Below, piece by piece: positions 5,660 through 14,167 of a stretch of DNA of 26,746 nucleotides; the first letter of the stretch is position 1; every line of letters starts with the position of its first letter. The notes under the pieces are model-generated. The model was not told the origin of the DNA. It worked only from the letters and a program-made list of their open reading frames with translations, and did no database searches. Location of the stretch: positions 1 through 26,746 of the forward strand of contig JAFGXZ010000279.1 of assembly GCA_016936335.1 (NCBI GenBank), given 5' to 3'. This DNA comes from Fidelibacterota bacterium (GTDB lineage: Bacteria > Fidelibacterota > UBA2242). The translations under genes were made by a program, and so were the position numbers.

Positions 5660-8600
5660 TTATTTATTTATCATGATTCGTTTGGCGGTTTGCCTGATCC
5701 AGTCTCCAAGTTTGACATCCTTCTTCTCTGTTAGTAACCAAATCAGTAAAATTGTTACAATGCACAAAACTGACAGGGCGCCGGCATAGCTTCTGGGAGT
5801 TCTGGATGCAATCAGGTTCTCGGAAAATTTCACTGCTGTAAAAATCAAACCGGAATACAAATATGCGGGGATGTTATTTCGTAAAAAGCAGACAATCGCA
5901 ATCCATAACCAGACAATAATCGCCGCGTAGGAAATGTAAAGGACAATGTACTCGCGAATGGTATCATAGGAATCGGGAATGAAAACAGCGAGGGACAGAG
6001 CAACGATAATATATTGAATCGATTGACGCGGGATGATTTTCCGAATCCAGAATATTCCGACGCCGGCAACAGCCGCTAAGATAAATCCACGACTGACAAT
6101 TGACAAAATTGCGTATAATGGAGCTAAAATATAATTGATCGAATGAGGCATCTGAAAATCCGGTTGAATAACCGCTGGCGCAACATTGAATGCCAGCCGG
6201 TAGCTCAAATGCTGAATTGCATAAATTCCGACGCTGATTAGAATTGCGGAAAAAACAGCATCCCGGGAAAAGTGATATCGGCAGTCTCGTTTTAATGTCG
6301 TTAGACATTTGGGATATATCGATAAAACCAGAGTTGTCAGCAGAAATATAATCAGGGTAATCACGAGGATCCGAAGCAGCGTTATCAGTACCCAGAAAAC
6401 CGTCCAGACCTGAATTCCCCAGCTGGTATTATAATTAATCAGGGCGAGTGGATAATTGGCCAATTCCAGGATTAGCCAGCCGCCCCCCAATAGGATACTG
6501 ATCATCAGCGGTGTTTTCCATTCAATAGTCACAGATTTCATTTGCCGGGTCAATACCATAAACGAAACAAAAGCAATCAGACACAACACGGCGATCTGGA
6601 TCGCCAGTCGCAGGGAATCAAAAAGCGTTTTCCGGGTTTTGGCATGTTCCCATTCTTCGGGGATTTTGTAAAAAATTGTAAAGCTTGAAACCGCATCGCC
6701 GGTAACGATGGTTTTAAAACGCAGAGTTCCATCGCCAACGTTGGCCGGATGAAGGTCTTTCGCTTCCCAGATAAAAGTATGTTCGATACGGTTTGGTAGC
6801 TGTCGTGAATAATCTTCAACGAGTTCAAAATCGGACAGGCGCAAGTTCCGACTACTTAGAAATTCTTTTGCCCGGAAGCAGGCGGCGTCTTTATCGATAG
6901 AAAACGCTTCAGCGGATTCCGGAAGAAGGTGATCAAAACCCACCACGGATTTTTCGCCGGGATGAATGTAAATATTGTATTCTTCTTTTTCCAGCGGTCG
7001 GTAGAATCTGACTCTCCAGACTACTGAATTATTGAGGTGCCGAGCCAGAATGGAGTTAAAATTTTTAACAGTGCTGTTTTCAAGGATATAGCGTCCATTT
7101 AAATTGGAGTAATTATTGATCAACACCATGGTGTTTTTAAAATTGTCCGGATCAACGCCTTTGTCCCGTAAAAAATCTGTTGCGGTTTGTTTGATTTCCG
7201 AACGGGGTATGGAATACTTATAATAATCACCGATTTTTTCAAAAGGAATCCACAGTACAGCAGTAAATATCAGAATCAGGATCAGGATTGTTTTCAGTCG
7301 TCGAGGCGTTAATTTTTGATACGCGGTGACGTATAAGTGGCAGGCTTTCTCCGGTTCTTTCGGTTCCGGTTTTAGGGGCGGACTGAATGCGGACAACAGG
7401 GGTTCGGAATCGGCAAATCCTCGGTTTTTCAGGTACATGATAATGTTGTACAGCAACGGGATCAAAATAATACCCAATGCAATGGAAGCGCTGATTACAT
7501 GATAGGGTTCGCCGGTTCTGAGCAGCAGCATGGATGAATAGATTGCATCGACCATATAGTGCCATACCAGAACCGTCAGAATCCCAAATTTCAGAAAAAT
7601 AAAACCGATGATAATACCAAAAACAGACACTTCAAAACCACGAATCCAGAATGGCTGATTGGGATAATTGGCATGGGCAAATCCCCAGATCACAGCCGGT
7701 ATCAAAACAGCCAGGATTTTGGATTTAAGCAGTTTTTCAATGAACGGGATTGCAAAAAGGCGGAAAGAAAATTCTTCAAGTACAGCCGGCAGAAAACCAC
7801 CGATAAGAATCAGTATCCATGGGAAAGCAGTATTCAGTGTGTCTGAGTAAGAGATGTTGGCCGGGGCCCAGGCCCCAAATCGTTTTGCAGTCAAATAGAA
7901 AATTGTCTGAAATGCCATAAACACTATTGCCAGCGTAATTCCGAGCGAAATACTGAAAAAGGTGTGTTTTGTCTGCAACCCTTTTCGAGAAAAAAGCCGA
8001 GCAAGCGGAATTCGATTGGGATAACTCCGGGCATAGATTAATTCACCAGCTCCGGTGAGAACGGTTATAATTAATCCCAGCAGTAGTGACTGGATAAAAA
8101 GATTGATGAAAAAATCACTGTAAAAGGCCCCAATACTCTGATTGATATCCAGATGAAATTTATAAAGGGGCAACAGGTTGAGTTCGGACAAAAATTTCAG
8201 CACAAAGGTCAGTAGTCCGAAAGTTGCCGAGGTTTTAATATTTACCTGTTTTCGGCCCAGATAGATAATAAAGAATGTGGCGATAACGATCATCAGAATG
8301 ATAAAGAAAACATCGGCGGTGGTGGCGGTAGTGGCGTTCAGTGAACGCAGACGCTGATAACTCCGCTGCCAGTTTTCGGGAACATGCAGGTATTCCCGGT
8401 ATTCGCCAATTTTATTTCCCTGAATCATAACGTCAAAACGGTAGGTGGCGTCGTATATTTCTACGGATTTGTTTTTATAGGTAAAGCGATAATCCACCCG
8501 ATTGGGTTTTACTTCGGTTCTATCTTCAATGAATTCCCATTCGTCGGGATTGATCCGGACGATCGCGGTTAAAAATTGATGACTTAATCGCCGTGCCTCA

Positions 8601-9040
8601 TCAATTGACAGAAGATCAGCGGCAACCTCTTCGGGAATTTTGTGCAGAAACTGAGTAACTTCGCCTTTTGGGGTGACCCCGACCAAAATTTCTTCACGGT
8701 TCAGTGGCTCGAACCAGCGATTGGTCCACTGCCAGATTCGAAAGTGATTGGTCAGTAAATCGTCGGCATCCTCCAGTCCGACCTCTTTTTCGACAAATGT
8801 TTTTGCCGTGTTGTCAAATTCAAACGCGGAAGCGTGAATTTTTGGGCCGGGATCAATATCCATTTTTGCCAGAAAGTCCAGTGCAATGTTCCGGGCTTCT
8901 TTCCGATTGACCTGGAAGTCAATGGCATGTTCAGGAAAGGCCCGATGGTAGTTAGACAATTCAAAATATCCGGCGCCTGCGATAGCCAGCAGACAAATCA
9001 GAATCAGAAGAAAATCTTTGGATTGAAGTCTTGTATTCAC
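5660..9040 (-). CDS. Large multi-pass membrane protein with a CPBP (CAAX/Rce1-like) glutamic protease domain and an internal duplication
   Basis: 1126 aa, GTG start. CPBP motifs LEEFSFR (E422 at nt 7775-7777), WGFAH and WHYMVD are present. Two related ectodomain-plus-TM modules are joined by a Pro-rich linker (SPPLKPEPKEPEK). Confidence 0.85.
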   Translation of the reverse strand: MNTRLQSKDFLLILICLLAIAGAGYFELSNYHRAFPEHAIDFQVNRKEARNIALDFLAKMDIDPGPKIHASAFEFDNTAKTFVEKEVGLEDADDLLTNHFRIWQWTNRWFEPLNREEILVGVTPKGEVTQFLHKIPEEVAADLLSIDEARRLSHQFLTAIVRINPDEWEFIEDRTEVKPNRVDYRFTYKNKSVEIYDATYRFDVMIQGNKIGEYREYLHVPENWQRSYQRLRSLNATTATTADVFFIILMIVIATFFIIYLGRKQVNIKTSATFGLLTFVLKFLSELNLLPLYKFHLDINQSIGAFYSDFFINLFIQSLLLGLIITVLTGAGELIYARSYPNRIPLARLFSRKGLQTKHTFFSISLGITLAIVFMAFQTIFYLTAKRFGAWAPANISYSDTLNTAFPWILILIGGFLPAVLEEFSFRLFAIPFIEKLLKSKILAVLIPAVIWGFAHANYPNQPFWIRGFEVSVFGIIIGFIFLKFGILTVLVWHYMVDAIYSSMLLLRTGEPYHVISASIALGIILIPLLYNIIMYLKNRGFADSEPLLSAFSPPLKPEPKEPEKACHLYVTAYQKLTPRRLKTILILILIFTAVLWIPFEKIGDYYKYSIPRSEIKQTATDFLRDKGVDPDNFKNTMVLINNYSNLNGRYILENSTVKNFNSILARHLNNSVVWRVRFYRPLEKEEYNIYIHPGEKSVVGFDHLLPESAEAFSIDKDAACFRAKEFLSSRNLRLSDFELVEDYSRQLPNRIEHTFIWEAKDLHPANVGDGTLRFKTIVTGDAVSSFTIFYKIPEEWEHAKTRKTLFDSLRLAIQIAVLCLIAFVSFMVLTRQMKSVTIEWKTPLMISILLGGGWLILELANYPLALINYNTSWGIQVWTVFWVLITLLRILVITLIIFLLTTLVLSIYPKCLTTLKRDCRYHFSRDAVFSAILISVGIYAIQHLSYRLAFNVAPAVIQPDFQMPHSINYILAPLYAILSIVSRGFILAAVAGVGIFWIRKIIPRQSIQYIIVALSLAVFIPDSYDTIREYIVLYISYAAIIVWLWIAIVCFLRNNIPAYLYSGLIFTAVKFSENLIASRTPRSYAGALSVLCIVTILLIWLLTEKKDVKLGDWIRQTAKRIMINK

Positions 9041-9088: not shown

Positions 9089-9114
9089 AAGACTCCGCTT
9101 GAAAGCGGAGTCTT
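9089..9114 (-). terminator. Rho-independent terminator after the 75-aa protein gene
   Basis: Perfect 11-bp stem AAGACTCCGCT-TTCA-AGCGGAGTCTT followed by TCATTTTATT on the minus strand, about 33 nt after the stop at 9148. Confidence 0.85.
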
Positions 9115-9147: not shown

Positions 9148-9375
9148 TTATTTTCTTCCTCTTGCCATCTTTGCACGAGAAACATCACCATTCTTATCGA
9201 TGAAATACAGGTAACCGGCTTCTCTTTTTACGCCACATTTGTTAACGACTTCAGCGCCGCCGCCTTTTTCACCGCCACGAGCCATTTTTGAACGGGCGAC
9301 ATTACCGTTTTTGTCAAGATAATAGAGGTATCCTTTTTCCTTCTTAACGCCACATGTTGCTACTTTTTCTGCCAT
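9148..9375 (-). CDS. 75-aa basic protein made of two tandem ~33-aa repeats, function unknown
   Basis: The true start is probably ATG 9375 (strong SD AAGGAGG 8 nt upstream) rather than the ORF-track start at 9453, which sits in the -35 box. It has its own promoter and terminator. Confidence 0.9.
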   Translation of the reverse strand: MAEKVATCGVKKEKGYLYYLDKNGNVARSKMARGGEKGGGAEVVNKCGVKREAGYLYFIDKNGDVSRAKMARGRK

Positions 9376-9424
9376 AATAAATTCCTCCTTATTTGGTTGA
9401 TTACTTTTTTTACAAGTTGACCCT

Positions 9425-9453
9425 ATGTTACACGACTGAAAATTAAATGTCAA
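9425..9453 (-). promoter_or_regulatory. Near-consensus sigma70 promoter for the 75-aa protein
   Basis: Minus strand TTGACA (9453-9448), 17 nt, TAACAT (9430-9425). Confidence 0.75.
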
Positions 9454-9503: not shown

Positions 9504-10100
9504 TTAGTCATTGATCATTTTTTCAATTTCCGAGGCCTTTGATCGGCGACCGGCCCGGATATATCGATTGATGGCTTCTTCAAACAATTCATTGGCCTTG
9601 TCAATGTTTCCCCGTGCTTTTTGCTCAATACCGGCCTCTTTTAGGTAAAGCGCGGATTCTTCCCATCGGCCCTCGTCTTTGAGAGTGTTTGCCAGCTGAA
9701 TATAATCTGGCTTGGCTTCACCGGCGGTATGCTGTTCGCCTTTCAGGGCAGCATTCAAAGTTGGGATTAGTTTTTCATAAATCGCAGACTTGGCATGAAT
9801 ATCATAAGCTCCGATCGACAAATATTTTTCCCGAATTTCGATCGTCAACTCTCCGGTGAGACCAATGACAGGAATATTGGGTTTGGTCTGCTTCATTAAT
9901 TTTAAGGTTTTATACCCGTCCATCCCCGGAAGATTATGGTCCAGAATCACGACATCGTAATCATTTTCTGTAAACAGAGCAACTGCTTTCTCGCCATCTT
10001 CGGCTTCAATAATCTCGTATTCCTCAGAACCCAGGTACTCGATCAAAGCATCCCGTAAAAGGGCCTTATCATCAACCAACAGAATTTTTTTAATAAGCAT
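9504..10100 (-). CDS. Response regulator: receiver domain plus a short TPR/SNAP-like helical C-terminus
   Basis: REC: LLVDD, VILDHNLPGMDG, GLTG, HAK. C-terminal helical repeats (LANTLKDEGRWEESALYLKEAG / QKARGNIDKANELFEEAINRY); no HTH recognisable. Confidence 0.85.
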   Translation of the reverse strand: MLIKKILLVDDKALLRDALIEYLGSEEYEIIEAEDGEKAVALFTENDYDVVILDHNLPGMDGYKTLKLMKQTKPNIPVIGLTGELTIEIREKYLSIGAYDIHAKSAIYEKLIPTLNAALKGEQHTAGEAKPDYIQLANTLKDEGRWEESALYLKEAGIEQKARGNIDKANELFEEAINRYIRAGRRSKASEIEKMIND

Positions 10101-10113
10101 TTTAAAATCCTTT

Positions 10114-11310
10114 CTATATCAACTTGAATTTTATTGTAAAAGTGGTTCCCTGCCCGGCAACACTTTTAACTGTTATTTCGCCCTCGTGATTTTCGACGGC
10201 TTTTTTACAGATCATCAAACCAAGCCCGGTGCCCTGTTTGCCGGCCCAATGTGTATAATCCGGGCGCCAGATTTTTTCAATTTTGTCTTCAGGGATACCG
10301 ACACCAGTGTCGGAGATCTCGACAATTGCATATCCATTCTCACGATAGACTTTCGCTGTCAGATTGCCTTTACCATCCATTGCCTTGAATGCATTTTCCA
10401 CGAGGTTGACAAACACTCTGATCAGATCCTCTTCGCTGGCGCTGATATTCAGCGCTTCACTGGAATATTCTTCAATCAGTTTGACATCGGGGTTTGCAAC
10501 CAGTTGCGAGTCTGTAAACAGGTGGATCGCTTCTTTGACAAGAGCGTTCAGATCGACAGTTTTTTTATGGCTTTTATCAATATCAATAGCCTGACCCAGA
10601 TGTTTCAGCTTTTCCCCCAACTCTTTGAAAAATCCCATCAAGGTAATGATTCCGTTTCCTTTTTCAATACCTTCTTCGGCAATTTTTAATACCCGGTCCC
10701 GGCACTCTTGCATAGTATCGGTACTGTTTTGATTCTGAATAGTATCAAAACAGTGTTCGACTTCATTCTTGAAACTTTCGATTTTACGCTGCAGGGTCTG
10801 AAGCCGCAACATTAGCGAAGCATAATAGCTGCCGGACATATCATGCCCGACGCTTTTCACAATTAAGCGGCTTTCTTCAATTGCCCGGCGGCGTTCTTTT
10901 GCCAGCTTTTCGTTTTCAATCCGCTCTTTTTGCCAGGCATATCCTTTTTCAATACGTTCCAGGAACAGATCCGGGTATTCCACCACGGCGTGTTTTTGGA
11001 TAAAATCCCGGGCGCCGAGGCGCAGGGAATCCACGGCGTTTTCGATTGTAATTTCGCCAGTCAGCACAATCACATAGTTCCGCTGAACCAGATGCTGTTT
11101 TTCAAGTTCTGCCAGAAAATCAAGTCCGGACATATTCGGCATTCGAATATCCAATAGAACGACTTTGAACTGTTTTTCCCGGAGAAATGCCAACCCGGCT
11201 TCAGGGTCGGTATTATAAATGATAGACCAGCCATTATCCTCCAGGGTTTCCTGGATGCTTTTACAAAAGGGTTCACTGTCATCGATCAAAAAAATATCTT
11301 TGTAAAACAT
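10114..11310 (-). CDS. Hybrid histidine kinase (N-terminal REC plus DHp plus HATPase_c), no sensor domain
   Basis: REC: FLIDD, LLDIRMPNMSG, VLTG, IQK. H-box VGHDMSG (His at 10843-10845); N-box VNLVENAFKAM; G1 SDTGVGI; G2 GTGLGL; HEGEI...GQGTTF. Confidence 0.92.
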   Translation of the reverse strand: MFYKDIFLIDDSEPFCKSIQETLEDNGWSIIYNTDPEAGLAFLREKQFKVVLLDIRMPNMSGLDFLAELEKQHLVQRNYVIVLTGEITIENAVDSLRLGARDFIQKHAVVEYPDLFLERIEKGYAWQKERIENEKLAKERRRAIEESRLIVKSVGHDMSGSYYASLMLRLQTLQRKIESFKNEVEHCFDTIQNQNSTDTMQECRDRVLKIAEEGIEKGNGIITLMGFFKELGEKLKHLGQAIDIDKSHKKTVDLNALVKEAIHLFTDSQLVANPDVKLIEEYSSEALNISASEEDLIRVFVNLVENAFKAMDGKGNLTAKVYRENGYAIVEISDTGVGIPEDKIEKIWRPDYTHWAGKQGTGLGLMICKKAVENHEGEITVKSVAGQGTTFTIKFKLI

Positions 11311-11313
11311 AAC

Positions 11314-13128
11314 TTAATTTCCTATTGGTATTTCCAGCGTCAAGCGCAAATTTGAAGCGTTTTCGTGAAGGGTTATCGTGCCGCCATAATCGTTACCAAC
11401 CAGTTCCCGGACTACTTCCAGGGAAAACTGGTAAGGGCTGTAACTTTTGCCGTCACCAAACAGCTCATTCATGGATTTTTTATGAATTTCAACACCCGCT
11501 ACATTATCGGAGCCGGCGATATTGGTAACAAGCATTTTTTTGTCATTTACCTGGGTTTCGATCCACAGTATTGAACCGTAATGTTCAAAACGCGAGATGA
11601 TTAATGAAATCAGCGTTACCAGAACTTCGGTTATTTCATTGGGGTCGACAACCAGCTGGGGAATGTTTGGCTCTTCACTTTTGTTACGCTGAATGACAAT
11701 TTTATAGGAAAGCAAATCATTCGTCAGGTATAAAAGTGCCTCGTCCAGTAGTTCCTGCCAGGTGCGTTTGACATGGATGAATCCGGCCTTAGTGGAAAAT
11801 TCCTGCAGTACCCTAACTTCATTGGCGACATTTTTCAGGTTGCTCAGAATCTGTTCAAATCTCTCAACGCTGGCATCAAGAGACTCGGTTTTACCCTTTT
11901 TAATTCTTTTCAGGTAATTGCCAATGCTCAGTTGGGCTTCCGTTAAAGGATTGACGACATCGTTGGGGATTCGCATGGCCAGGGTGCCCAGGGCGGTCAG
12001 GCGCTGGTTTTTCATTGTGGAAACCGCAGAATACTTCATTGTATCAAGGTATTGTACGTTTTCGATGGCAACGGAAATCATATCGACCATAATCTGAAGA
12101 TACTGCTCATCATCTTCGGTAAAAAACTTATCCCTTTCGGTACCCGGAAGCTTATTGTAAAGTTTAATAGCTCCCTGTGTTTCATTCTTGATGTTGATCG
12201 GCATTCCCAAAAAGGTCAGACGATCACCGAATTTTAAATGTTCTTTGATGGCTTTCCGGTATTTTCCTTTGTATTCCGGCAGGGTCAAGACATTCCGGGA
12301 GCGAATGGTACGGTTCTCTTTTACAATAGTTCCGGTCAGTCCTTCGCCGACCTTATGTTCGGCAACGTTTATCAAATCTTTGGGAATCCCATATCCCCCT
12401 TTAAGAACAAGTGTATCTTTATCGGTTTTTTTGCGAAGGTAAATTTCACAGGTTTCCGAACCGATAGTTTTGGCTGTGTTTTCCGCAACGAATTCCAACA
12501 GGTCGCTTAATTCGAAGAATGACAAGACCTGGGTGCCGACTTTCATTAACAGTTCGAGATATTCAGCTTTCCGGCGTTCCCGTCTTAAATATTCTGAATT
12601 ATCAATTGCCATCGCTACATAACGGGCTATCAGCGATAAGATTTCAAGATCGGAGCTTGTAAAATTTTTATCATCGGAAGCTGTCCGGATCAAACCGATA
12701 AAGCGCTCCTGGTAGCTGAGCAGCGGAACGGCCATGAAAGATTTGGCTTTTTGGTGGTCGGATTCAGTAAACTTGCCAATCCAACGCAGGTTCTCGCCCA
12801 GCTTGCTAAGATCGGCGTTGGATTTTTTGTTCAAATCGCGAATCAGAAGTGGTTTCTGGTTATCAAATACCCAACCGGTTAACCCTTCATTCCGCTTGTA
12901 GATAACTTCGCCATTCGTCGGGGTTGACAGTCCGCTGGTTTTGACCATGCGAACCACATCATCTTCTTCATCATACAGAAAGATAGAACAGCCTTTCCAT
13001 TTGAAAATCTGGGGAATTAAATCAGCACTTTTTTCGATGATACCATCCAGTGACCGTTCCCGAAAGATTGAAATTACTTTCAGAACCTGATCGATAGTCA
13101 AGGCGCTGATGTCTTTTTTTCCGCTCAT
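11314..13128 (-). CDS. Tandem GAF-GAF protein with a degenerate (pseudo) histidine kinase module
   Basis: Two GAF domains (CSIFLYD...EGLTGWV...FMAVPL; CEIYL...EGLTGTI...FLGMPI). The H-box reads LGTLAMRIPNDVVNPL, with His replaced by Asn. N-box and G2-box residues are absent; YGGTI is retained. Confidence 0.85.
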   Translation of the reverse strand: MSGKKDISALTIDQVLKVISIFRERSLDGIIEKSADLIPQIFKWKGCSIFLYDEEDDVVRMVKTSGLSTPTNGEVIYKRNEGLTGWVFDNQKPLLIRDLNKKSNADLSKLGENLRWIGKFTESDHQKAKSFMAVPLLSYQERFIGLIRTASDDKNFTSSDLEILSLIARYVAMAIDNSEYLRRERRKAEYLELLMKVGTQVLSFFELSDLLEFVAENTAKTIGSETCEIYLRKKTDKDTLVLKGGYGIPKDLINVAEHKVGEGLTGTIVKENRTIRSRNVLTLPEYKGKYRKAIKEHLKFGDRLTFLGMPINIKNETQGAIKLYNKLPGTERDKFFTEDDEQYLQIMVDMISVAIENVQYLDTMKYSAVSTMKNQRLTALGTLAMRIPNDVVNPLTEAQLSIGNYLKRIKKGKTESLDASVERFEQILSNLKNVANEVRVLQEFSTKAGFIHVKRTWQELLDEALLYLTNDLLSYKIVIQRNKSEEPNIPQLVVDPNEITEVLVTLISLIISRFEHYGSILWIETQVNDKKMLVTNIAGSDNVAGVEIHKKSMNELFGDGKSYSPYQFSLEVVRELVGNDYGGTITLHENASNLRLTLEIPIGN

Positions 13129-14102
13129 GACGATAATATCCGATAGATTTTCAATAGTTCGGAGTCCAGCGGTTTTTTCTTTTCCCAGGTTTCCAGCAAG
13201 GGTGTATAAGTGACATGATTATTGGACCAGCCCACCATAATATCGGTTTTTCTCTCTAAAAGTGCCTGGACGGCATGGTAACCCAGACGACTGGCCAGCA
13301 GTCGATCGGTGGCTGTCGGACTGCCACCCCGCTGGGTGTGGCCCAAAACGCAGACATGACAGTCGACATTAAAATTCTTTTTCAATTTGAAAGCGATTTC
13401 ATTAGCCGAGCCAAGTTTATGTCCCTCGGCAACAACCAACAGGCTGCTTGTTTTTCCGGCCTTTGACCAGGTCTTGATCATTTCGCCGAGGTGTTCGAGG
13501 CTCGTTTCGGATTCGGGAACCAGGATTTCCTCGGCTCCGCCGCAGATACCGACTTCAAGAGCAATAAAACCGGCACGCCGCCCCATGACTTCAACCAGGA
13601 AAATCCGGTCGTGGGACGCAGCGGTGTCCCGGATTTTGTCAATGGAATCCAGGGCTGTGTGAACGGCGGTGTCATAGCCGATAGTTAGATCTGTACCGAA
13701 AATATCATTGTCAATGGTGCCGGGAATACCGATCACGTTGAATTTATGTTCTTCATACAAGGCATGGGCGCCGTGAAAGCTTCCGTCTCCACCAATCACA
13801 ACCAGACCGTCGATGTCCCATTCTTTGAGAACATCGGCGCCACGTTTACGCCCGGCTTTATGCAGGAAAGCCTCACTGCGGGAAGTTTTTAAAAAAGTGC
13901 CACCTTTTTGAATAATATTGCTGACAGAACGACGGGACATAGGCATTACTTCCCCTTCGATCAGGCCTTCATAACCACCGTAGATGCCAAATACATTAAT
14001 GCCTTGATCAATTGCCGTACGGACCACAGCCCGGATAGCAGCGTTCATACCGGGAGCATCACCCCCGCTTGTCAATAATGCGAGTCGTTTTATTGTATAC
14101 AT
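13125..14102 (-). CDS. pfkA: ATP-dependent 6-phosphofructokinase
   Basis: LLTSGGDAPGMNAAIR, GGDGS, PGTIDND (Gly at both ATP-specificity positions), EVMGR, LGHTQRGG. The stop overlaps the next gene's ATG by 4 nt. Confidence 0.97.
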   Translation of the reverse strand: MYTIKRLALLTSGGDAPGMNAAIRAVVRTAIDQGINVFGIYGGYEGLIEGEVMPMSRRSVSNIIQKGGTFLKTSRSEAFLHKAGRKRGADVLKEWDIDGLVVIGGDGSFHGAHALYEEHKFNVIGIPGTIDNDIFGTDLTIGYDTAVHTALDSIDKIRDTAASHDRIFLVEVMGRRAGFIALEVGICGGAEEILVPESETSLEHLGEMIKTWSKAGKTSSLLVVAEGHKLGSANEIAFKLKKNFNVDCHVCVLGHTQRGGSPTATDRLLASRLGYHAVQALLERKTDIMVGWSNNHVTYTPLLETWEKKKPLDSELLKIYRILSS

Positions 14103-14137: not shown

Positions 14138-14167
14138 AATATACATCAAAACAGCCCAATATTTCAA
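14138..14167 (-). promoter_or_regulatory. Putative sigma70 promoter for the pfkA operon
   Basis: Minus strand TTGAAA (14167-14162), 18 nt, TATATT (14143-14138); SD-like CAGGA before the ATG. Confidence 0.5.

Follow-up and report, generated by a model that had tools for sequence, protein, structure and literature searches.

Why does the gene for a glycolytic enzyme run, with almost no spacing, into three genes for soluble signalling proteins? The question is raised by positions 9504–14102 of contig JAFGXZ010000279.1 (GCA_016936335.1), from a Fidelibacterota bacterium; the window, by which we mean the whole stretch of DNA analysed here, is 26,746 nucleotides (nt) long. In this block pfkA is followed on the same strand by genes for a pseudo-histidine kinase with two GAF domains (psK), a histidine kinase that carries a receiver domain (REC-HK), and a small regulator that joins a receiver to a helical output (REC-TPR); we refer to the last three genes as the cassette. 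A sequence-only reading of the window had proposed a metabolite-sensing phosphorelay, co-expressed with Pfk and acting by protein contact. The overall explanation that we modestly favour is that the block is an operon, and that its signalling genes form a split kinase/phosphatase cassette which would tune pyrophosphate (PPi)-driven versus ATP-driven metabolism. The cassette itself appears to be a self-contained, ancient cytoplasmic two-component system with an invariant gene order across four phyla. The features of the block are as follows.

13125–14102, minus strand: pfkA, ATP-dependent 6-phosphofructokinase, 325 amino acids (aa) (open reading frame list and PF00365)
11314–13128, minus strand: GAF-GAF pseudo-histidine kinase (psK), 604 aa (open reading frame list, Pfam and alignment)
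10114–11310, minus strand: REC-histidine kinase (REC-HK), 398 aa (open reading frame list and Pfam)
9504–10100, minus strand: regulator with a receiver and a four-helix TPR-like output, 198 aa (open reading frame list, Pfam and AlphaFold model)
14167–14138, minus strand: sigma-70-like promoter candidate, TTGAAA-18-TATATT (10/12 consensus match)

Kinase and phosphatase residues appear to be divided between two proteins

In HisKA kinases, an acidic residue directly after the phospho-accepting histidine (H+1) is needed for kinase activity, and a Thr or Asn at H+4 for phosphatase activity (PMC3510030). REC-HK holds the first of these residues. Pfam recognizes Response_reg and HATPase_c (E 2e-24) in this protein, with no HisKA match. 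Its receiver is canonical (D10, D11, D54 at 11149–11151, T84 and K106) and is followed by a coiled linker. The H-box, VGHDMSGSYY, supplies His156 (10843–10845) and Asp157 at H+1, and has Gly160 (10831–10833) at H+4. The N, G1, F and G2 boxes are complete (NLVENA, DTGVGI, IWRPDYT and GTGLGL) and are kept across four phyla. The H-box pattern VGHD[MI]xG[ST]x[YF] is likewise invariant in all clades, and H+4 is Gly in every orthologue that we found. By its motifs, REC-HK thus looks like an active kinase that is without the phosphatase residue.

The GAF-GAF protein has the complementary set. Pfam detects two GAF domains in its 604 residues and nothing else, HATPase_c included. The AlphaFold model (mean pLDDT 82) consists of a GAF domain, a long helix, a second GAF domain, two long helices and an alpha/beta domain, which gives a layout of GAF-A at about 27–151, GAF-B at about 207–326, DHp helices at 338–448 and a degenerate CA domain at 453–601. 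Comparison of a family profile, in which three canonical kinases were included, with the PDB identified the C-terminal 255 residues as a DHp-CA homologue (ZraS, E 2e-34 over 245 positions), the best PDB matches being ZraS and the ThkA-type kinase 3a0r. An alignment with canonical kinases puts Asn389 (11962–11964) where they have the phospho-accepting His, and shows that no clade has kept the N, G1 or G2 box. The claim that this protein is His-less was therefore borne out, and by these features it is a true pseudokinase, with a DHp-CA fold lacking the ATP-binding motifs. What it retains is a D-x-x-N phosphatase motif, D390-V-V-N393, in which Asn393 (11950–11952) stands at H+4 and is invariant in 27/27 aligned family members; a phosphatase function is one that this motif may serve.

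The H-box of the pseudokinase differs between clades. It reads IPN[DE]xxN[PS]L in Marinisomatota, Cloacimonadota and Acidobacteriota-labelled metagenome-assembled genomes (MAGs), which together make up an FCB-type clade, and I[RLP]HExxNPL in Anaerolineae, the sole clade that retains the His. Since the loss of the ATP site is universal and the loss of the His is not, the former is the older of the two. Because the kinase keeps His-Asp with Gly at H+4, and the pseudokinase keeps D/E-x-x-N without an ATP site, it looks as though the kinase and phosphatase activities of a bifunctional histidine kinase have been split between REC-HK and the pseudokinase.

The regulator is predicted to act by protein contact

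The third cassette protein begins with a canonical receiver (D10, D11, D54 at 9939–9941, T82 and K104), these residues being invariant in 32 sequences. Response_reg is its Pfam match, and TPR_10, TPR_2 and SNAP appear below threshold (E 7e-4 to 7e-3). The AlphaFold model places four helices at residues 133–197 (pLDDT 85–96), a region that also bears a strongly conserved signature, GRWEESA...RAGR. The nearest neighbours in a protein language model are TPR and SNAP clusters at 0.80, which we take as a lead only. We found about 75 clusters of this family, and only together with the cassette. The modelled output is probably a protein-contact module of helical repeats without a DNA-binding domain. 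An ANTAR-type RNA-binding output was also considered, as EutV is among the fold matches, and was rejected for lack of a Pfam ANTAR match at E 0.01.

No DNA-binding family was matched by any of the four proteins in Pfam or NCBIfam. Transmembrane segments were not detected in any of them either, the highest 19-residue Kyte-Doolittle mean being at most 1.49, as compared with 2.6–2.9 in the membrane proteins of the window. Both results uphold the earlier description of the four products as cytoplasmic and free of DNA-binding domains.

The four genes may form one transcription unit

The stop codon of pfkA and the start codon of the pseudokinase gene share the letters ATGA (13125–13128), an overlap of 4 nt that can be read directly from the sequence. 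The junction between the pseudokinase and REC-HK is TAA-GTT-ATG, a gap of 3 nt, and a 13-nt gap containing the ribosome-binding-like string AAAGGA separates REC-HK from the regulator gene. The coordinates, the common orientation and the spacings given in the sequence-only reading are thus all correct. The promoter candidate at 14167–14138 lies in a divergent spacer of 183 nt common to pfkA and eno, and it is the best site upstream of pfkA; a strong internal promoter, which would have uncoupled the genes, was looked for, and the sigma-70-like sites inside the block reach at most 9/12. These calls are matches to the sigma-70 consensus, which may not be the consensus of the host phylum. No convincing terminator-like hairpin was found on the minus strand before 9114–9089, which lies past the small gene downstream of the block, and Rfam and tRNA scans of the window gave no match and thus no riboswitch or leader ahead of pfkA. 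From this arrangement we infer that pfkA and the three signalling genes form one transcription unit. That the arrangement is more than chance follows from the recurrence of the same order in 18 other species-level genomes.

Two genes lie downstream of the block on the same strand. At 9148–9453 is the gene for a small basic protein, which has a TTGACA-17-TAACAT site of its own and a strong terminator at 9114–9089. Within the f1 family of loci, this protein is 72–94% identical and is encoded just downstream of the cassette; in the cassette-less genome G010 its gene is directly downstream of pfkA. At 5660–9040 is the gene for an 1126-aa protein with an Rce1/CAAX-protease domain and a YcdB/YcdC-type repeat, which is also kept downstream of the block in family f1 (56–87% identity).

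The cassette recurs as a unit of its own in four phyla

The three-gene cassette is present in about 75 species-level genomes, belonging to Marinisomatota/Fidelibacterota, Cloacimonadota, Anaerolineae and two Acidobacteriota-labelled MAGs. Among 79 loci of GTDB species representatives, the order psK, REC-HK, REC-TPR is kept in every one with enough sequence, and it is kept in metagenome contigs too. Orthologues of the pseudokinase are 61–94% identical within the order of the window, 41–47% in other Marinisomatota (Fidelibacterota), Cloacimonadota and the two Acidobacteriota-labelled MAGs, and 26–31% in about 45 Anaerolineae. No NCBIfam model scored above its cut-off for any of the three proteins. 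Searches of the literature for pfkA beside GAF or histidine-kinase genes, for GAF pseudo-histidine kinases, and for Marinimicrobia together with pyrophosphatase and phosphofructokinase (PFK), returned no description of the system, in agreement with the earlier remark that no described system of this architecture was known to its author.

An expanded form of the cassette was seen on one metagenome contig (L044:2352–12875), where two GAF pseudokinase genes, two REC-kinase genes and two genes for REC-helical regulators stand in series. One of these pseudokinases has three GAF domains and 788 aa. Genes for an ECF sigma factor and an anti-sigma-like zf-HC2/REC protein lie upstream.

Linkage to pfkA is old within one order, and neither general nor obligatory

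PfkA is by its sequence an ordinary ATP-type enzyme. It passes the NCBIfam model TIGR02482 (PFKA_ATP; 414 bits against a cut-off of 371) and matches PF00365 at E 1e-108 and Bacillus PFK structures at E 1e-91. ATP-dependent and PPi-dependent PFKs are told apart by Gly rather than Asp after GGD, and by Gly rather than Lys before TIDND; the motifs GGDGS and PGTIDND of PfkA have the ATP-type residues. The genome of the window also encodes a 408-aa PPi-PFK-like paralogue with GGDD and PKTIDND (L142:1286–2512, contig C84). Its gene is placed between that of PFOR and phosphate acyltransferase and acyl-kinase-like genes, a setting that hints at fermentation by a PPi-dependent route in addition to the ATP-PFK.

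Is the cassette, then, a partner of PfkA? Among informative species-level genomes of the order of the window, pfkA is directly upstream of the cassette in 19/22, so that the linkage is not a recent rearrangement that close relatives lack. The ATGA overlap is found in all family-f1 loci, and gaps of 9–22 nt separate pfkA from the cassette in the other families. At least five different flank contexts surround the block, and outside a few genera the outer flanks (enolase, small basic protein, CAAX protease) have given way to unrelated genes. The four genes have thus stayed together through five rearrangements or more.

The linkage is confined to this one order of Marinisomatota, and we did not find it in any other clade. 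In sister genera an orthologous pfkA (73–81% identity) persists without the cassette. Genome G010 has the synteny of the window intact apart from the cassette (and eno), which is absent between pfkA and the small gene downstream. The PfkA tree intersperses linked genes with unlinked ones, the number of well-supported changes being at least three. In three or more losses of the cassette, pfkA stayed behind. Conversely, three genomes of the same clade (G025, G031 and G306) keep the cassette with no pfkA beside it, and a search for a PfkA orthologue in these genomes found none. The simplest history would be a single, early joining of the cassette to pfkA, followed by repeated loss of the cassette. 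The absence of the linkage elsewhere, the losses of the cassette, and the cassette-bearing genomes in which no PfkA orthologue was found together indicate that the linkage is neither general nor obligatory. Of the original proposal, a tight unit with pfkA stands, being conserved in relatives; the idea that the cassette is inherently a partner of Pfk does not, as PfkA orthologues outlive its loss and most lineages carry it free of pfkA.

Two loci of the order differ in other ways. In G031 (genus g15), the slot that pfkA fills in congeners is taken, on the opposite strand, by a gene for a 715-aa fusion of D-Ala-D-Ala-ligase-like ATP-grasp and M20 peptidase domains (L033:4362–6509). In G033, of a cassette-less genus, a lone 120-aa receiver gene lies 170 nt after pfkA (L058:7991–8353); its product is 32% identical to the receiver of the regulator, and may be an unrelated CheY-like protein or a remnant.

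The cassette is associated with membrane pyrophosphatases

A more widespread association is with membrane pyrophosphatases (mPPases). Of about 37 Anaerolineae loci, 29 have an mPPase gene next to the cassette. An H+-PPase (PF03030, E 8e-224) is encoded directly upstream on the same strand in 24 of them, and the five others have an mPPase of a second type at about 1 kb on the downstream side; in about eight loci there is no mPPase within 5 kb. In genome G306, the pseudokinase of which is 68% identical to that of the window, the cassette is followed at about 1 kb by a type I mPPase gene. The association with mPPase is thus broader and more repeatable than that with pfkA.

Within Marinisomatota the association takes another form. 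Of 301 genomes, 30 have both the cassette and an 857-aa paralogue of mPPase, and 271 have neither (30/30 versus 0/271). The apparent exception, G034, has its last two cassette genes at a contig end. This perfect co-occurrence is suggestive. The two loci are not physically tied: 25–28 kb separates them in two genomes, and in a complete genome matching Fidelibacter multiformis the distance is 184 kb. The genome of the window holds two mPPases, present as fragments of a type I enzyme and of the insert-bearing paralogue.

8910–10022 of contig C15 in the genome of the window, outside the window itself (G000; L148): fragment of the insert-bearing mPPase paralogue; full-length orthologue, 857 aa, at L144:1702–4275 (P0202)

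Between the motifs GGAWDNAKK and GDTVGDP, the paralogue has a loop of 148 aa, compared with 20 aa in every other mPPase examined. A cytoplasmic insert of 128 aa replaces the usual GGKGS..HK stretch, and the catalytic motifs are kept on both sides of it; in P0202 the insert falls at about residues 668–812. The insert matches no Pfam family, and only three related clusters were found among 1.84 billion representatives.

A different appendage was noted in two cassette-bearing Cloacimonadales (L151 and L152, from G301 and G302), the sole mPPase of which has a C-terminal tail of about 100 aa. The tail contains two copies of the Cys-rich motif TTGEMCDDC.AKGGCD and looks like a metal- or redox-binding appendage.

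A proposed mechanism and its alternatives

We propose that REC-HK phosphorylates the 198-aa regulator and perhaps its own receiver too. The GAF-GAF protein, gated by a putative small cytoplasmic ligand, would oppose this phosphorylation, either as a dedicated phosphatase or by docking on the phosphorylated receiver or kinase as DivL does. The regulator would then act, through protein-protein contact, on a target in PPi/ATP energy metabolism, and the physiological job of the system might be to balance PPi-driven against ATP-driven metabolism (mPPase, and PPi-PFK versus ATP-PFK). Co-transcription with pfkA would tie the dosage of the cassette to the ATP-consuming step of glycolysis, and direct action on PfkA is a possible, less supported target. 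We regard this mechanism as evenly balanced between right and wrong. Of the relay that was originally proposed, the general tie to energy metabolism is kept, and the associations with mPPase move the likely target from Pfk to the economy of PPi and ATP. A bolder version has the phosphorylated regulator docking on the cytoplasmic insert of the mPPase paralogue, and perhaps on ATP-PFK in this order, with a metabolite bound by the GAF domains setting the state, such that the system would switch between PPi-conserving glycolysis (PPi-PFK, with the PPase as pump or synthase) and ATP-spending glycolysis. We hold this version to be speculative and rather unlikely; if true, it would provide the first example of a two-component system with post-translational control over an ion-pumping pyrophosphatase.

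Several points weigh against the explanation that we favour. The activities of the cassette proteins are all read from motifs, and the assignment of a phosphatase supposes that the rules of HisKA hold for a DHp domain without His or nucleotide; a pure docking role would fit the pseudokinase equally well. The sole available metatranscriptome run of the source study contains nothing of the locus, so that co-transcription is a deduction from gene arrangement. The fold of the regulator, receiver plus helices, is nearest to the N-terminal half of the secretion regulator PorX. Genome G306 carries the cassette without the 857-aa paralogue. When relatedness is allowed for, the co-occurrence reduces to only three to four independent contrasts on the PfkA tree (sign test p 0.25), and families f8 and f17, which were not placed on the tree, add perhaps two more. 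Lastly, in Fidelibacter-type genomes, Cloacimonadales and the Acidobacteriota-labelled MAGs, the cassette has unrelated housekeeping neighbours (a TPR protein and ffh, a methyltransferase, or adenosine deaminase and pyrG).

The docking role can be taken further, to a pseudokinase that is an allosteric partner of REC-HK and not a phosphatase at all. As in DivL, signalling would run in reverse, the pseudokinase reading the phosphorylation of a receiver (that of the small regulator, or the N-terminal one of REC-HK) together with the GAF ligand and switching REC-HK on or off, possibly via a DHp heterodimer. A kinase core has been repurposed in just this manner in DivL (PMC4211667). The DHp surface of the pseudokinase is well conserved though the protein cannot phosphorylate, and REC-HK, being without a sensor, needs input from elsewhere. 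Mere docking does not explain the invariant Asn393 or the acidic residue at H+1, nor does it explain the complementary loss of Asn/Thr in REC-HK; moreover, the Anaerolineae clade, having kept the His, may still rely on phosphotransfer chemistry. We consider this account possible but doubtful. It concerns how the proteins work; two others concern what they control. One is that the cassette hitch-hikes, borrowing the promoters of well-expressed housekeeping genes while controlling an unrelated function such as the envelope, secretion or motility, in a PorX-like fashion. Its upstream neighbours vary by clade and are mostly same-strand housekeeping genes with short gaps (pfkA, hppA, a methyltransferase gene, a TPR gene neighbouring ffh); PorX heads the structural matches to the regulator over receiver and helices, and is a sub-threshold NCBIfam match as well; and the co-occurrence falls short of significance when relatedness is taken into account. 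We nevertheless think it unlikely. An mPPase gene adjoins the cassette in at least three separate arrangements and in two phyla, though a genome has only one to three such genes, and the exact co-distribution with the paralogue is hard to obtain by chance, including as it does separate losses (the cassette is cleanly excised in G010) and a paralogue that is 25–184 kb away in other genomes. In addition, the regulator is without the PglZ enzyme domain that defines PorX.

The other account keeps to the enzyme next door: the cassette would be a dedicated controller of Pfk, its products made in fixed proportion to PfkA, with the phosphorylated regulator or the pseudokinase binding PfkA to report or set flux. 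The start-stop overlap kept in all family-f1 loci, the adjacency in 19/22 genomes through at least five flank contexts, and an output that looks like a protein-contact module without a DNA-binding domain speak for such a controller. We judge it improbable, since the cassette is at least as conserved where pfkA is not nearby (about 55 genomes of other clades), PfkA orthologues outlast its loss in at least three lineages, and no PfkA orthologue was found in three genomes that bear it; nor did any of the tests made here set linked PfkA proteins apart from unlinked ones.

To our knowledge, the output of two-component systems is nearly always transcriptional, and only a few pseudo-histidine kinases have been described, DivL among them. 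The cassette, conserved in four phyla, has neither a membrane sensor nor a DNA-binding output, and appears to divide kinase and phosphatase chemistry between two proteins, which makes it a natural experiment on the role of either half of a bifunctional kinase. That it is repeatedly associated with pfkA and mPPase points to post-translational control of ATP and PPi in anaerobic fermenters of sugars and peptides; we found no description of these ties in the literature searched, and we know of no signalling system that governs the coupling of mPPase and PFK. The phylum to which the window belongs, Marine Group A/SAR406, is abundant in oceans and sediments and has one cultured member, Fidelibacter multiformis IA91. 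As IA91 carries both the cassette and the insert-bearing mPPase, the idea is testable.

Comparison with known systems

The metabolic setting resembles PPi-dependent glycolysis with a proton-pumping mPPase, as in Clostridium thermocellum; the genome of the window has a PPi-PFK-like enzyme, mPPases and PFOR. That PPi couples mPPase and PFK metabolically is established (PMC8863071). The gene linked to the cassette differs from such systems in being that of the ATP-PFK and not that of the PPi enzyme.

The top Foldseek match of the regulator is PorX, from type IX secretion in Bacteroidota (FCB super-group), over 188–200 columns (E 5e-11), and both proteins have a receiver followed by a helical bundle. 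PorX goes on to a PglZ phosphodiesterase domain of about 300 aa, whereas the regulator ends after the helices. The root-mean-square deviation is about 14 Å across both domains, and the NCBIfam PorX model gives 60 bits against a cut-off of 300. Going by its domains, the regulator is not a PorX-type response regulator, PglZ being absent.

The GAF region of the pseudokinase model matches the tandem GAFs of PDE2/5/6, cyanobacterial CyaB2 and bacteriophytochrome kinases (Foldseek E 1e-16 to 2e-19), all of which share two GAFs, a long joining helix and a helical output. Sequence identity is only 11–17%, the NKFDE signature of cyclic-nucleotide GAFs is not kept in the family consensus, and the Cys context for bilin binding of bacteriophytochromes is not present. 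By sequence, the closest GAFs are those of PtsP, NifA and Nlh1. A cyclic-nucleotide ligand was considered, as GAF-A of the window has an NK...F-x3-D-like string; the family consensus drops this string, and the candidate was rejected.

In DivL, a kinase core has been repurposed to read a phosphorylated receiver and modulate a kinase (PMC4211667), and information probably flows from receiver to DHp-CA. The DivL-CckA-DivK system of Caulobacter likewise combines a non-autophosphorylating kinase-like protein, a real kinase and a small receiver protein, none of which binds DNA. The differences are many. DivL has Tyr in place of His, PAS sensors, a membrane anchor and an intact-looking CA domain, whereas the cassette pseudokinase has Asn (or His, in Anaerolineae) and tandem GAFs, is soluble, and has lost the ATP site; the receiver is C-terminal in CckA and N-terminal in REC-HK; and the three genes of the cassette form one invariant operon. 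The DivL chain 4q20 matches only the CA domain of REC-HK (E 5e-8), and we saw no sequence kinship beyond the superfamily. The analogy with DivL drawn in the sequence-only reading is thus reasonable as a way of working; as a statement of membership it fails, given Asn for Tyr, GAF for PAS and the N-terminal receiver.

CrdS, HK853, EnvZ and NtrB/ZraS, with their H-[E/D]-x-x-[T/N] motif, have the same DHp-CA fold, and the acidic and Thr/Asn positions can be recognized in both cassette proteins. Bifunctional HisKA kinases hold both residues in one protein, whereas the cassette divides them, His and Asp with Gly at H+4 in REC-HK, and Asp/Glu and Asn in the pseudokinase. In sum, the cassette appears to be a variant of two-component signalling, with a split kinase/phosphatase and a pseudokinase as its sensor, rather than a new category.

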